Shown piece after piece: positions 633 through 64,000 of a stretch of DNA of 64,000 bases. The stretch comes from Enterobacterales bacterium (GTDB lineage: Bacteria; Pseudomonadota; Gammaproteobacteria; Enterobacterales; Enterobacteriaceae), in contig CANJWD010000002.1 of assembly GCA_947478475.1 (NCBI GenBank), forward strand, positions 3,645 to 67,644, read 5' to 3'. Positions within the stretch are counted from its first letter, which is position 1; each line of letters begins with the position of its first letter. The notes under the pieces were generated by a model. The model worked only from the letters and a program-made list of their open reading frames with translations, did not search any database and was not told where the DNA came from. Both the position numbers and the translations under genes were made by a program.

Positions 633-1624
633 TGCCGTTACTCGATATCCGCAATCTTACTATTGAATTTATGACCGCAGCAGGCCCCATAAAGGCCGTG
701 GATCGTGTGAGTATCACACTCACAGAAGGCGAGATACGTGGGCTTGTGGGGGAATCAGGCTCTGGCAAAAGTCTCATCGCCAAAGCAATCTGTGGCGTGA
801 CTAATGACCACTGGCGAATCACCGCCGATCGCTTCCGTTTTAATGATACCGACTTATTACAAATTTCCGCCAAACAACGCCGTAAAATGATCGGTCATAA
901 TATTTCCATGATCTTTCAGGAACCTCAGTCCTGCCTTGATCTCGCCGAAAATATTGGCCAGCAGCTGATGCAGGCCATACCTTCCTGGACCTATAAAGGC
1001 AAGTGGTGGCAACGCCTTCACTGGCGTAAATGCAGGGCCGTCGAATTGCTGCACCGCGTTGGCATTAAAAATCATAAAAATATTATGGGCAGTTATCCCT
1101 ATGAACTGACAGAAGGAGAGTGCCAAAAAGTGATGATTGCCATAGCACTGGCCAATCAGCCACGTCTGTTGATTGCTGATGAGCCTACCAATGCCATGGA
1201 ACTCACGACCCAGGCTCAGATTTTTCGCCTGCTGGCAAGTTTAAATCAAAATAACAACACCACCATTTTATTGATTAGCCACGACTTGCAGGTAATGAGC
1301 AAGTGCGCGGGTCGGATCGATGTGTTGTACTGTGGCCAGACGGTAGAGAGTGCAACCGGTGAAGATTTACTGTCAACACCCCATCATCCCTATACTCAGG
1401 CTTTGATTCGATCGATACCCGATTTTGGTCGTTCGCTGCCGCATAAAAGTCGCCTTAACACTCTGCCGGGGGCAATACCTGCACTGGAGCATTTACCCAT
1501 AGGCTGTCGGTTAGGACCTCGCTGCCCCTATGCTCAGAAAACCTGCATTGAAACCCCGCGTCTGCGACTGGTAAAAAATCATGCCTTTGCCTGCCATTTT
1601 CCACTCAACCTGGAGACGCCATGA
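632..1624 (+). CDS. sapD: ABC transporter ATP-binding protein SapD
   Basis: 330 aa, Walker A GESGSGKS, Walker [13 protein letters not shown], Opp/Dpp-type C-terminal Cys-rich tail; same length as E. coli SapD. Confidence 0.9.
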
Positions 1625-1640
1625 ACCTGGAGATGCCATG
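1607..1640. repeat. 2 x 17 bp tandem duplication spanning sapD stop / sapF start
   Basis: aacctggagacgccatg aacctggagatgccatg (1 mismatch); copy 1 supplies the sapD TGA, so the duplication only adds a 17-nt spacer before sapF ATG. Confidence 0.9.
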
Positions 1641-1641
1641 A

Positions 1642-2442
1642 ATGAGAGAGACAAAACTCGAAGTTTTCAATTTGAGTAAAACATTCCGTTACCGTACCGG
1701 TCTGTTCCGGCGACAGCATGTCGAGGCAGTGAAAGCGGTAAATTTTACACTGCACGAAAGTCAGACACTGGCCATCATTGGCGCAAATGGCTCAGGAAAA
1801 TCAACGCTGGCAAAAATGTTGTCGGGTATGACTGAACCCAGTTCAGGGGAGATAGTGATTGACGGCCATAAACTACACTACGGCGATTATCGCTACCGCA
1901 GCCAGCATCTTCGCATGATTTTTCAGGATCCTGGTACGTCGCTTAACCCTCGCCAGAGAATCGGGCAGTTGCTGGATGCGCCGCTGAGGCTAAATACCAG
2001 CCTCGATCCCAGTGCACGCGAACAGCGCATTCACCAGACATTGCGTCAGGTTGGATTACTGCCCGATCACGCCAGCTATTACCCTCATATGCTGGCTTCC
2101 GGTCAGAAACAGCGCATTGCACTGGCCCGCGCCTTAATTTTGCAACCTAAAGTCATCGTCGCTGACGAAGCGCTGGCTTCACTGGATATGTCCATGCGCT
2201 CTCAGATTATCAATCTGATGCTAGAGCTCCAGGAAACACACGGTATAGCCTATATTTATGTGACTCAGCATTTGGGAATGATGAAACATATCAGCGATCA
2301 CCTCATCGTTATGCACGAGGGCGCCATCGTGGAACAGGGCAATACCATCGATGTTTTATCCGCTCCATCACATGAGCTCACGAAAAGACTCGTTTTTAGC
2401 TATTTTGGTCACTCGTTCTCCTCGTGTGACATACCGCAGTAA
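1642..2442 (+). CDS. sapF: ABC transporter ATP-binding protein SapF
   Basis: 266 aa, Walker A GANGSGKS, signature SGQKQR, Walker B VIVADEA; colinear with E. coli SapF. Confidence 0.9.
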   Translation: MRETKLEVFNLSKTFRYRTGLFRRQHVEAVKAVNFTLHESQTLAIIGANGSGKSTLAKMLSGMTEPSSGEIVIDGHKLHYGDYRYRSQHLRMIFQDPGTSLNPRQRIGQLLDAPLRLNTSLDPSAREQRIHQTLRQVGLLPDHASYYPHMLASGQKQRIALARALILQPKVIVADEALASLDMSMRSQIINLMLELQETHGIAYIYVTQHLGMMKHISDHLIVMHEGAIVEQGNTIDVLSAPSHELTKRLVFSYFGHSFSSCDIPQ

Positions 2443-2501
2443 CGTGAAGAAAGATCGTATTAACCGTATCGTTTTTAAAAATAACCACAAGGATTATTGC
2501 T

Positions 2502-3290
2502 ATGGGTTTTCTTACCGGTAAACACATTTTGATAACAGGTGTTGCCAGCAAATTGTCTATCGCCTGGGGCATTGCACAGGCAATGCATCGCGAAGGTGCC
2601 AGGCTTTCTTTCACTTACCAGAACGACAAACTGAGATCCAGAGTCGAAGGATTTGCCGCTGAACTCGGCTCTGAGATCATTCTGCCCTGCGATGTAGCGA
2701 ATGATGCCAGCATCGATGAATTATTCGTCGTACTGGCTAAATCATGGCCACAATTTGATGGTTTTGTCCATTCGATCGCTTTCACTCCCGCCGATCAACT
2801 GGACGGTGACTACGTCAACGCGGTAACCCGTGAAGGTTTTAACATTGCCCACGATATCAGTTCTTACAGCTTTGTCGCCATGGCAAAAGCCTGCCGTTCA
2901 ATGCTTAAGGCTGGCTCTGCCTTATTGACCCTCTCATACCTGGGGGCAGAACGTGCTATTCCTAACTACAACGTAATGGGCCTCGCCAAGGCATCGCTGG
3001 AAGCTAACGTGCGTTATATGGCCAGCGCTATGGGCCCTGACGGTACGCGGGTCAATGGTATTTCTGCCGGACCAATCCGTACACTGGCTGCATCGGGCAT
3101 TAAAGATTTCCGCAAAATGCTGGCCCACTGTGAGGCAGTCACCCCGCTGCGCCGCACCGTCACTACGGAAGATGTCGGTAACTGCGCGGCCTTTTTGTGT
3201 TCTGATCTGGCTTCAGGCGTTACCGGAGAAATTTTGCACGTTGATGGTGGCTTTAATATCGGAGCAATGAATGAGCCGGAACTAAAATAA
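2502..3290 (+). CDS. fabI: enoyl-ACP reductase (NADH) FabI
   Basis: 262 aa, [33 protein letters not shown]..., SDR fold with [12 protein letters not shown] catalytic Tyr/Lys; same length as E. coli FabI. Confidence 0.95.
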
Positions 3291-3761
3291 CGGCAGGCTA
3301 ACAGCACTGCCTGACATCAGGACTATTGTGCAGTTCAGAGTAAAAATAACAGGTGTTAAATATCTGATACAAAATTAACTTTTGTTGACAATTTTTTACG
3401 AAAGGTGTGAGGACACAGACTATTGTGACGTTGTAGGATTGCCTGGTTGTCGGAGTTAGTTGATCCGATAACGACATCGCTTCATAAGTCGCTTCACCTT
3501 AAAAGGAGTTATCTATAATGTCAGATATTTTAAGCCGGAAGACAGGAACTGCGCTGCAGAATACACAAGCTTACACACACAGAAGGGGAGGGGCGTACCA
3601 CCAGTGATGACTGGAGTAGCACAGATGGCTGGACTGCAAAACATTCCCTGGAGGAGATGTTCCGGGATCTGGCTAAATGGCTGGGTATTAAATTACCCTA
3701 TGAGCCCGGTCCGCAGCAGATTTCCCAGAATCTGTCTCTGGAAACCACAGTGCAACAAGTA

Positions 3762-62290: not shown

Positions 62291-63481
62291 ATGGCCGCAC
62301 GCTTGTTTCTCGCCCCGGGACGTGAAAAATCCTTACTTCGTCGCCACCCATGGATATTCTCTGGTGCTGTCGAACGTGTTGAATGTGCCGGTTATTCTGG
62401 TGAAACTCTCGATATTTTTGATAGTAATGAACGATGGCTGGCCCGTGGCGCTTATTCACCGCAATCACAAATTCGCGCCAGGATCTGGACATTTCAGCAG
62501 GATGAAGCTATCGACGTTACATTTTTTATTCGCCGTCTGCAACAAGCGCAAAGCTGGCGTAACTGGATAGCCTGCCGTGATGAGCTGGATAGCTATCGCC
62601 TGATTTCAGGTGAATCCGACGGCCTGCCTGGCATTACCATCGACAGATACCAAAACTATCTGGTGTTGCAGCTACTCTCTGCCGGCGCGGAATATCAACG
62701 CGCCACGTTGCTCTGCGCGCTGCGGCACTGTTATCCGGAATGCTCCCTCTTTGATCGTTCTGATGTTTCAGTCCGTAAGAAGGAGGGCCTGCCGATGACC
62801 AGCGGGCTGATTTTCGGAGATCTGCCCCCTGACCTGCTAACGATTCATGAACATGGTACGAAATTACTGGTCGATATCCAGCACGGACATAAAACCGGGT
62901 GTTATCTGGACCAGCGGGACAGCCGTCTGGCAGCGCGTCGCTACGCCAGTAACCGCCGGGTATTAAACTGTTTTTCTTATACCGGTGCTTTTGCAGTATC
63001 TGCCCTGATGGGAGATTGCCAGCAAGTCATTAATATCGATACCTCACAGAGTGCGCTGAATATTGCCAGGCAAAATATTGAGTTAAACCAGCAAGACGCG
63101 GGCAAAGCCGAATTCATCCGCGCTGACGTATTCCGGCCGTTAAGACGCTTTCGGGATGATGCTGAAAAGTTCGATATGATAGTGATGGATCCGCCGAAAT
63201 TTGTCGAAAACAAAAACCAGCTGGCGGGCGCCTGTCGGGGCTACAAAGATATTAACATGCTCGCATTACAGTTATTACGCTCCGGTGGAATTTTATTGAG
63301 TTTCTCCTGCTCCGGTCTGATGCAGGCCGATTTATTTCAAAAAATCCTGGCCGGGGCCGCATTAGATGCTGGCCGTGATATACAATTTATAGAGCAGTTT
63401 CGCCAGGCTGCCGACCATCCGGTTATCGCGAGCTATCCTGAAGGGCTTTATTTGAAAGGATTTGCCTGTCGGGTGATATAA
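62291..63481 (+). CDS. rlmI: 23S rRNA m5C1962 methyltransferase RlmI
   Basis: 396 aa; [27 protein letters not shown]... PUA + SAM-MTase ([16 protein letters not shown]); same length as E. coli RlmI. Confidence 0.9.
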
Positions 63482-63510
63482 CCGGAACCACCATATTTTG
63501 CTCTTGCTTT

Positions 63511-63549
63511 CAGTAACAGCAGTCAGTAACAGCAATCAGTAACAACAGT
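63511..63549. repeat. 3 x 13 bp tandem repeat in rlmI-hspQ spacer
   Basis: cagtaacagcagt cagtaacagcaat cagtaacaacagt. Confidence 0.9.
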
Positions 63550-63572
63550 GAGTTATTTTTCTGAGGGTTATC

Positions 63573-63890
63573 ATGGTCGTCAGTAAATTTGGTATCGGGC
63601 AACAGATTCGCCATAAACTGCTCGGATATTTAGGGGTTGTTATTGATATAGACCCTGAATATTCGCTTAAACAACCTCAGGCTGACGAGATTGCGGCCAA
63701 TGAGGCACTACGCTTATCTCCCTGGTATCATGTCGTGATGGAAGATGATCAGGGGCAGCCTGTTCACACTTATCTGGCGGAAATTCAGCTAACATCTGAA
63801 CCCCCTAAGGCTCATCCGGAGCAACCCTCTCTGGATGAACTTGCAGAGTCCATACGTCATCAGCTTCAGGCACCCAGCTTGCGTAACTAA
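63573..63890 (+). CDS. hspQ: heat shock protein HspQ (hemimethylated DNA-binding YccV)
   Basis: 105 aa; [29 protein letters not shown]...[22 protein letters not shown]; same length as E. coli HspQ. Confidence 0.9.
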
Positions 63891-63911
63891 ATTATGTTCG
63901 TTAAGAACCTG

Positions 63912-64000
63912 CTAATATTCACCTCTGTCGTTATCTCTGTCGCTCAGAAAGCGGCGGCGCTCAGACTCTTCGTCCCATGCTGACTGTATTTCTTCCAGCA
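63912..64000 (-). CDS. possible 3' end of an unidentified gene running into the window from the right
   Basis: The only frame open to the window edge on the minus strand reads ...LEEIQSAWDEESERRRFLSDRDNDRGEY-TAG; too short to identify. Confidence 0.3.
   Translation of the reverse strand, partial: LEEIQSAWDEESERRRFLSDRDNDRGEY
63921..63944. repeat. 2 x 12 bp imperfect tandem duplication at the 3' end of that partial ORF (DRDN DRGE)
   Basis: acctctgtcgtt atctctgtcgct. Confidence 0.6.

Follow-up and report, generated by a model that had tools for sequence, protein, structure and literature searches.

A stretch of 64,000 nucleotides (positions 3,645 to 67,644 of contig CANJWD010000002.1, assembly GCA_947478475.1), referred to below at its full length as the window, was analyzed for short tandem arrays, in which a DNA segment is repeated head to tail. 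The duplications in the window are local, strictly tandem and 12-21 bp in length; they are located at unrelated sequences and are filtered by selection for reading frame and position. It is likely that this uncultured, fast-evolving enterobacterium, whose nearest named relatives are Yersinia, accumulates repeats of the variable-number tandem repeat (VNTR) class found in Yersinia, at a density like that of Y. pestis. The accumulation of such repeats is a known trait with an intensity that varies strongly between lineages, and the window lies at the upper end of the range known so far.

Excess, reading-frame filter and reproducibility of the arrays

The arrays were listed by Tandem Repeats Finder (TRF) with settings 2/5/7 and a minimum score of 30. 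The 53 TRF rows of the window represent 52 non-overlapping arrays spanning 364-63553. Within the period range of 10-25, 32 arrays were found at a score of >=40, 24 at >=50 and 14 at >=60. The density at a score of >=50 was 0.375/kb. Markov simulations of the window (order 1, 3 and 5) produced a mean of 0.15-0.57 arrays at this score, with a maximum of 3. The controls comprised 80 nuoG-centred loci (about 22.7 kb each) from other Enterobacterales and 80 rnb-centred metagenome loci, giving 160 loci and 3.1 Mb in total. In the same TRF run, the densities were 0.0147/kb for the nuo loci, 0.034/kb for the rnb loci and 0.023/kb when pooled. The window is about 16-25 times denser than most enterobacteria.

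A set of 35 arrays with a period of >=9 and a score of >=40 was then used for the analysis. The periods in this set are 9-21 bp and the copy numbers are 1.9-6.8, with at most 5.1 copies among the 12-21 bp arrays. When the 35 units were compared with each other, 13 pairs sharing about 20 7-mers were found, while about 14 shared 7-mers were expected by chance. A dispersed repeat element of the REP, ERIC or MITE type was rejected, as the loci share no sequence beyond these chance 7-mers. A CRISPR array was also rejected: the units abut directly with periods of 9-21 bp, and the number of spaced direct repeats does not exceed the background level. The mean GC of the units is 40.6%, compared with about 49% in the window; the lower value may simply reflect the location in spacers and gene termini, or easier duplication in AT-rich DNA. 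The first-pass annotation of this DNA had reported an excess of 12-21 bp arrays, at least 30 in number, and TRF, the Markov simulations and the 160 controls confirm this excess. Its description of the arrays as locus-specific head-to-tail duplications of unrelated units, and not copies of a dispersed element, agrees with the 7-mer comparison, and its examples in NuoJ, NuoK, RecJ, FtsP, NadE, HtpG, DkgA and TrpH were all found. Its view of the density as unusual is correct in relation to Enterobacterales generally; it does not hold in relation to Y. pestis, which is comparable in both density and period distribution.

Gene calls were taken from the matching metagenome contigs described below, and gene names from NCBIfam and Pfam. 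Coding sequences (CDS) occupy 90.1% of the window. Nevertheless, 19 of the 35 arrays are not wholly inside a CDS, i.e., they fall in 9.9% of the sequence (p = 7e-11). A distance of at most 60 nt from a gene end was found for 8 of the 15 coding arrays (p = 1e-4). A period divisible by 3 was found in 13 of the 15 coding arrays versus 7 of the 19 non-coding or junction arrays (Fisher p = 0.005), the latter being the chance proportion. The 13 in-frame coding arrays have periods of 9, 12, 15 or 21. The two coding exceptions are the 19-bp array in aroP and an imperfect array of 12/13 bp close to the start of a 105-aa open reading frame (ORF). A 13-bp array in prfB (40097-40122) was considered as an out-of-frame insertion and rejected. 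It encodes MQKKNAEKQ, which is also present in E. coli RF2, and because the peptide is conserved the array does not represent a duplication event. The array at 19948-19976 is upstream of the true yfbR start and is therefore non-coding. These data show that purifying selection shapes the surviving positions and, within genes, the surviving periods. The earlier statement that most arrays lie near gene ends or in spacers is confirmed by the counts. The period filter proposed with it also stands, with corrections to the list of coding arrays. The restriction of coding periods to 12, 15 and 18 bp was wrong, as rsxC contains a coding array of 21 bp.

Alignment shows that the lineage-specific peptide repeats noticed before in conserved proteins are derived insertions (NuoF, NuoH, NuoK, NuoL, NadE and HtpG). 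In NadE, the TGTD array is an 8-aa internal insertion relative to seven aligned Yersiniaceae NadE proteins, and the NNGH array forms a 13-aa C-terminal tail; the length is 539-541 aa in all but one of 120 relatives among the NadE matches listed. NuoK has a duplicated N-terminal segment, which is single-copy in a protein of 100 aa in 12 of 12 relatives examined. NuoH carries a 4-aa N-terminal extension (MSDT) derived from the nuoG/nuoH junction array, NuoL has three extra N-terminal residues compared with its relatives, and NuoF contains a KPxT triplet repeat without counterpart in relatives. HtpG has a 14-aa insertion in the charged linker compared with E. coli HtpG, and the NEGED x2 array is part of this insertion. 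For RNase II, relatives align only to residues 1-643 of 660. The arrays of NuoK, NuoH and the nuoH-nuoI spacer are missing from the sister lineage described below. The copies within arrays are from 100% down to about 75% identical to one another. This range indicates that the duplication process has been long-running.

The arrays were found again in other assemblies. At least 16 independent metagenome contigs, obtained from different samples by two assembly pipelines, carry the exact proteins of the window. These contigs are from the ENA assemblies MEHR18-2 and KAVA23-1 and from the Logan assemblies of SRR6787038/9, ERR37612xx and ERR9631090, and they stem from at least nine samples and several sequencing projects. 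Contigs L001-L006 and L087-L096 match the window exactly, arrays included, over 2-21 kb each and about 190 kb in total. All differences amount to one repeat unit, one N-gap, one homopolymer indel and one single-nucleotide polymorphism (SNP, at 10921). The repeat unit is a 13-bp unit of the nuoH-nuoI array (30350-30406) that is missing in L004, and the N-gap in L001 is inside the same array. This array, among the highest in copy number (4.4), is the only one seen to vary, in 1 of 16 contigs. Because the contigs differ by only one unit, one SNP and one homopolymer indel, the data point to a nearly clonal population persisting across samples. We infer a freshwater-reservoir origin from the sample labels alone (MEHR18 and KAVA23).

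An origin of the arrays by chance or by misassembly could be argued from three observations: the prfB array is a chance product of conserved codons, the low-scoring arrays of period 10-11 are at background, and one scaffold has an N-gap inside its 13-bp array. However, 24 arrays were found where fewer than 0.6 were expected, the 16 contigs are identical to the window across different assemblers and samples, and no assembler could produce a reading-frame filter. The probability of this explanation is practically nil, and for the whole set it is already refuted. The collapse on independent re-sequencing that the first-pass annotation had named as the sign of an artefact was not found in the 16 contigs.

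Relationship to Yersinia and to other repeat systems

NuoG is 81% identical to that of Y. rohdei, the closest among the matches listed, and NadE shares 72-73% identity with many Yersinia. In the JGI metagenomes, the identity of RNase II to any match was at most 71%, and no match to the window was found by DNA pattern. For the concatenated Nuo proteins (4118 ungapped residues), the identity to Yersinia is 84.5%, the best of the named genera compared. The identity within Yersinia is 97%, and this places the organism outside the sampled Yersinia. The distance of the window to each outgroup exceeds that of Yersinia by about 5-6 points, which indicates a long branch. A NuoJ search recovered NuoJ itself, also in NCBI on a 70,570-bp contig, together with a nearer lineage found only in Logan contigs (L182 and L183; SRR25399947 and ERR14835625), which has a GC of 43-44% and a nucleotide identity of 76%. 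The sequence examined from this lineage was 23.5 kb (L182 1-12680 and L183 1-10812). A neighbour-joining tree places L182/L183 as the sister of the window (100/100) and groups the two weakly with Yersinia, at a bootstrap of 58/100.

The VNTR loci of Y. pestis and Y. pseudotuberculosis, which serve as MLVA typing markers, provide the closest comparison. In Y. pestis, 280 TRF loci were reported (settings 2/7/7, score >=80, period <=200), corresponding to about 0.060/kb; among 88 analysed VNTR loci, the motif length is 7-21 bp in 84% and the location is intergenic in 54.5%, and the units of ORF-located VNTRs are divisible by three (PMC3689786). With matched settings (2/7/7, score >=80), the window contains 5 arrays, or 0.078/kb, versus 0.060/kb in Y. 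pestis and 0.0042/kb in the 160 controls. Loci centred on nadE were taken from four Yersinia species, with two loci from Y. pestis. The Y. pestis nadE locus contains 7 arrays with a period of 14-25 and a score of >=50 in 21.6 kb (0.32/kb), and the window is level with this locus. At the same score, 2 arrays were found in the locus of Y. enterocolitica and 1 each in those of Y. intermedia, Y. bercovieri, Y. rohdei and Y. pekkanenii. Together, the six Yersinia loci average 0.099/kb versus a background of 0.023/kb (p = 1.6e-5). The Y. pestis VNTRs and the arrays of the window are similar in nature: they are head to tail, with locus-specific units mostly of 7-21 bp, more than half are intergenic, and units in ORFs are divisible by 3. 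The window differs from Yersinia in having more perfect two-copy duplications, and in having arrays within highly conserved housekeeping proteins (NuoH/K/L, NadE and HtpG).

An in-frame VNTR was also observed in the Lipoprotein_20 gene beside nadE in Yersinia. This 15-bp coding array has 10.5 copies in Y. intermedia (L180 8311-8470), 3.2 in Y. pestis (L177 8284-8331) and about 2.3 in Y. enterocolitica (L179 8290-8324).

Several observations weigh against assigning the arrays to the Yersinia trait at a Y. pestis-like density. Arrays are about 4 times sparser in the five non-pestis Yersinia loci than in the window, the window exceeds the Yersinia mean by about 4 times (p = 7e-8), and perfect arrays, which are young, are about 7 times as frequent per kb as in the Yersinia loci. 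For Y. pestis, the like-for-like data are a single genome-wide count from the literature and a single 21.6-kb locus. The bootstrap for the placement of the window with Yersinia is only 58%, on a long branch. In the 23.5 kb of the sister lineage, no array with a score of >=50 was found, and its nuoH-nuoI spacer is 14 bp, where the window has the 13-bp array. Since the sister lineage is array-free and the other Yersinia are sparser, the density varies within the clade and may represent an independent increase in this lineage. Finally, a copy-number change was seen at only one array, in a sampled population that is almost clonal.

Tandem repeats in three other settings share part of these features. 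Ehrlichia ruminantium, which is host-restricted, has genome-wide, locus-specific tandem repeats that expand and contract mostly in its non-coding DNA (PMC10710844). This organism is an alphaproteobacterium with about 64% coding DNA; the window is 90% coding, and its units are within a tight range of 12-21 bp. In Portiera aleyrodidarum BT, a lineage-specific burst of intergenic short repeats, absent from the sister lineage, shows a spike at 7 bp in a 358-kb genome with 26% GC, from which dnaQ, mutL and other repair genes have been lost (PMC3673631). The likeness lies in the characteristic unit length and in the sister lineage without a burst, whereas the units of the window are 12-21 bp and its GC is 49%. 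Contingency loci are also tandem repeats near gene starts with copy numbers variable by slippage. However, their units are 1-8 nt, and they act on surface or restriction genes by switching the reading frame or the spacing of the promoter. A phase-variable contingency locus was rejected for the window: the arrays are in housekeeping genes, and the coding units are multiples of 3 and therefore do not switch the frame, with one out-of-frame case near the aroP stop.

Origin of the duplications

The size spectrum of the duplications is sharply bounded. Perfect head-to-tail duplications with periods of 3-11 are at background level, with none at 10 or 11 in the window. With periods of 12-18, 14 were found in the window versus 5 in the 3.1 Mb of controls (about 0.1 expected). 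No perfect duplication with a period of >21 bp was found in the window, and neither spaced (non-contiguous) local direct repeats nor inverted repeats exceed the background level in it. The two-copy arrays overshoot two units by 0-3 nt, with a mean of about 1 versus about 0.7 by chance (about 15 arrays). No common boundary motif, such as GATC or the primase CTG, was seen by eye at the duplications. The near-chance microhomology in about 15 arrays indicates that the first duplication is unlike slippage between pre-existing direct repeats. Slippage, which had been offered as a cause in the first-pass annotation, fits the change in copy number and is a poor fit to the first duplication with its 0-3 nt of terminal microhomology. 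General template switching was rejected, as the excess of spaced direct or inverted repeats that it predicts was not found. The target-site duplication of a transposable element was rejected as well: the length is not fixed (12-21 bp), many arrays contain 3-5 copies, and the window contains no transposase. The 12-bp onset together with the near absence of microhomology, as observed in about 15 arrays, is the least ordinary aspect of these arrays.

A pathway of three steps probably accounts for the arrays. A segment of 12-21 bp is duplicated head to tail at an essentially arbitrary site, an event that the arrays themselves demonstrate. Replication slippage would then add or remove whole units, more readily at higher copy number; we infer this step from the Yersinia VNTR literature and from the one polymorphic array (4.4 copies) here. 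Purifying selection purges most of the genic events, and the survivors are found in spacers or tolerant linkers, around start/stop junctions, within about 20 codons of either gene end, and with in-frame periods of 9, 12, 15, 18 and 21. The selection filter of this last step is shown statistically.

Several arrays contain initiation regions. The Shine-Dalgarno (SD) site and ATG, or the start region, are duplicated at sapF, rcsB, nuoH and trpH and upstream of parC. At rcsB, the upstream copy is a 5-codon mini-ORF with a TGA that overlaps the true ATG, and this 14-bp out-of-frame duplication is harmless. The trpH array has an in-frame ATG in each unit (AGTATGACCACA). In the 18-bp array upstream of parC, the copy nearest parC is AAGGAGGACCACCATGAA. 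Arrays with a start codon survive because the downstream copy retains an intact initiation region. Four of the five units of the 18-bp array (54510-54586) contain the perfect 10-bp palindrome GTGGTACCAC, and the unit nearest parC has GTGGTCCTCC. In this single case, the change from GTGGTCCTCC to GTGGTACCAC looks like a quasi-palindrome (template-switch) correction that was then spread through the array. A 16-codon ORF with a perfect AAGGAGG SD site was also observed upstream of parC (54441-54600, minus strand), and the 18-bp array places three more in-frame ATG-containing copies before it. This ORF might encode a leader peptide, or it might be what remains of a lost gene.

It is a tentative possibility, with the odds against it, that the arrays are the footprint of a distinct, heritable and microhomology-independent process with a 12-bp lower limit and contiguous copies, which would operate in Yersinia and be amplified here. 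With the same low confidence, such a process would stem from a specific change in replication or repair, such as staggered-nick fill-in or an altered polymerase or nuclease, and not from generic slippage. An unlikely explanation is a mutator specific to this lineage, in which a suppressor of duplications (ExoI/ExoVII/ExoX, the Pol I 5'-nuclease with Xni, DnaQ or UvrD) would be lost or weakened and the rate raised far above the Yersinia baseline. The 4-fold excess over the mean of the six Yersinia loci, the lack of arrays in the sister lineage, the 7-fold excess of perfect young arrays and the long branch are all in its favor, as are the signs of gene loss and rearrangement (rsxDGE, ptsP and rcsD) and the template-switch-like change in 4 of the 5 units of the 54495 array. 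A precedent is Portiera BT, where the burst was proposed to follow the loss of dnaQ (PMC3673631). On the other side, mutH and recJ, the sole repair genes within the window, are both intact and full length, as the first-pass annotation had stated. Y. pestis, with a similar density, has an ordinary repair complement. Duplications caused by exonuclease or flap defects are normally flanked by direct repeats, and none of this kind are present here. In yeast, the duplications of the rad27/FEN1 type have flanking direct repeats of several bp. This flap-processing signature resembles the arrays as short replication duplications of tens of bp, whereas the microhomology in the window is about 0-3 nt.

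Fill-in of staggered breaks, in place of slippage, would be another source of the first duplication: nicks on opposite strands, 12-21 bp apart, would each be extended as far as the template reaches and the ends joined, giving an exact duplication without microhomology, similar to a target-site duplication. The sharp onset at 12 bp and the upper limit near 21 bp, the overrun of 0-3 nt close to its chance value, and the strict contiguity of the copies without an excess of spaced repeats are consistent with this explanation. In yeast, the de novo tandem duplication of non-iterated sequence is reported to require end joining (PMC4608483). Against fill-in, the window has no transposase or similar gene, the variable length speaks against a single transposase, only about 15 arrays were available for the microhomology estimate, and later point changes might have wiped out short microhomologies. 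To our knowledge, this group has neither an enzyme with a 12-21 nt stagger nor an end-joining system. The near-zero microhomology and the 12-bp onset favor a process of the fill-in type over one of the weakened-suppressor type, although fill-in itself is quite improbable. The chance that the arrays are kept for use is slimmer still. Repeated SD and ATG regions or spacers would here tune the translation initiation, coupling or transcription of housekeeping operons. About 20 of the 35 arrays are within 60 nt of a start codon, and the duplicated SD and ATG at the five sites named above are in line with this function. However, tolerance predicts the positions equally well, because start and stop codons fall together in operons, where only the spacers are tolerant. 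An enrichment of ATG that would link the units to translation starts was not supported, since ATG is present in about 35% of units (either strand), which is the chance level. In addition, the unit sequences are unrelated, and the same operons work without the arrays in the sister lineage and in other relatives. The reading of the arrays as Yersinia-type VNTRs, with position and period set by selection, is preferred.

Array coordinates, neighbouring genes and significance

The coordinates of the arrays are collected in Table 1.

Table 1. Tandem arrays in the window, with position, strand, period and copy number, and location.
Position	Strand	Array	Location and remarks
1607..1642		17 bp x2.1	spans sapD stop and sapF start; unit holds GGAG and ATG
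3828..3851	+	12 bp x2.0, perfect	lineage-specific 256-aa ORF
4156..4181	+	12 bp x2.2, perfect	lineage-specific 256-aa ORF
6147..6169	+	9 bp x2.6	rsxB
6743..6786	+	21 bp x2.1, 78% matches	rsxC
7987..8016	+	15 bp x2.0	rsxC
11357..11398		21 bp x2.0	16 nt upstream of mutH
12370..12401	-	12/13 bp x2.6, imperfect	close to start of 105-aa ORF
13759..13799		14 bp x2.9, perfect	917-bp gene-free spacer 13571-14487
17525..17562	+	12 bp x3.2, perfect	nadE (TGTD x3)
18096..18131	+	12 bp x2.9	NadE C-terminal extension (NNGH repeats)
18206..18248		15 bp x2.9	between convergent nadE and rcsB
18917..18944	-	14 bp x2	duplication of rcsB start (ATGAACAAYCTTAA), read directly from sequence
19948..19976		15 bp x1.9	6 nt upstream of yfbR start
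21500..21528		14 bp x2.0, imperfect	upstream of nuoA
22746..22780		16 bp x2.2	directly 3' of nuoB stop
22779..22812		16 bp x2.1	directly 5' of nuoC start
25178..25212	+	12 bp x3, diverged	NuoF N-terminus (KPxT x3)
29340..29371	+	12 bp x2.6	spans nuoG stop and nuoH start
30350..30406		13 bp x4.4	nuoH-nuoI spacer
31455..31487	+	18 bp, imperfect duplication	NuoJ C-terminus
31547..31576	+	15 bp, imperfect duplication	NuoK N-terminus
31868..31890	+	9 bp x2.7	NuoL N-terminus (3-aa insertion)
38177..38239		9 bp x6.8, AT-rich, low identity	spacer; weak member of the set
42713..42742	-	15 bp, imperfect duplication	near RecJ N-terminus (NIHPC NVHPR)
44539..44565		13 bp x2.1, perfect	32 nt upstream of ygfZ
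47707..47731	+	9 bp x2.8	N-terminus of cytochrome c subunit gene
48972..49020	+	15 bp x3.3	dkgA codons 2-17 (QPVVK x3)
51253..51283	-	15 bp x2.1	FtsP signal peptide (LSGAS x2)
52181..52215		11 bp x3.2, low identity	across parC stop
54465..54493	-	14 bp x2.1	within 16-codon ORF upstream of parC
54495..54586	-	18 bp x5.1	between htpG and parC; unit is SD and ATG region
55848..55888	-	15 bp x2.7	HtpG charged linker (NEGED x2)
58899..58939	+	15 bp x2.7	RNase II C-terminal extension
58960..58991		16 bp x2.0, perfect, plus diverged third copy	between convergent rnb and yciO
60514..60569	-	12 bp x4.7	trpH start (MTTS repeats)
60573..60597		12 bp x2.1, perfect	directly upstream of trpH array
62161..62196	+	19 bp x1.9	out of frame, 25 nt from aroP stop
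63510..63553		13 bp x3.4	20 nt upstream of hspQ (YccV-like)

The lineage-specific 256-aa ORF alone contains three arrays. At 4415-4423, five nt before its stop, the window has G8 and contig L090 (Logan, ERR9631090) has G9, and the G9 form extends the predicted product to 284 aa. This difference may be a real polymorphism or a sequencing error. Eight ORFs are without a Pfam match (3657-5193, 12100-12417, 14488-16203, 36875-38066 and 56561-56821). An NCBIfam scan of the first four of the eight found no match, save a far-below-threshold ArnT-like match of a 571-aa ORF.

Compared with E. coli and Yersinia, the gene complement shows signs of reduction and rearrangement. The rsxABC genes (5427-9058) are followed directly by a convergent thyA, without rsxDGE-nth; ptsP is absent between lgt and rppH (9081-10610); and rcsD is reduced to a 91-aa Hpt-domain ORF (18948-19223) beside an intact rcsB. 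In prfB, the programmed +1 frameshift site is kept (AGGGGG-TAT-CTT-TGA-C; 40930-40960, minus strand), and the 320-aa ORF therefore represents RF2 residues 46-365. The GC skew is positive at about 16-36 kb and negative at about 40-60 kb, and largely tracks the gene strand (nuo operon plus, lysS-prfB-recJ minus).

The repeat richness that is used in plague typing is not peculiar to Y. pestis. It is at least equal in an uncultured, fast-evolving relative, where the repeats even alter core respiratory and chaperone proteins. With 90% of the window coding, the arrays give an unusually clean view of mutational input filtered by selection. The standard slippage explanation leaves the step of the first duplication unaddressed, and the 12-bp onset with almost no microhomology is a testable clue to the birth of bacterial minisatellites. 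If a distinct duplication process is indeed at work, this organism and Yersinia would be a natural system in which to find a minisatellite-making enzyme.

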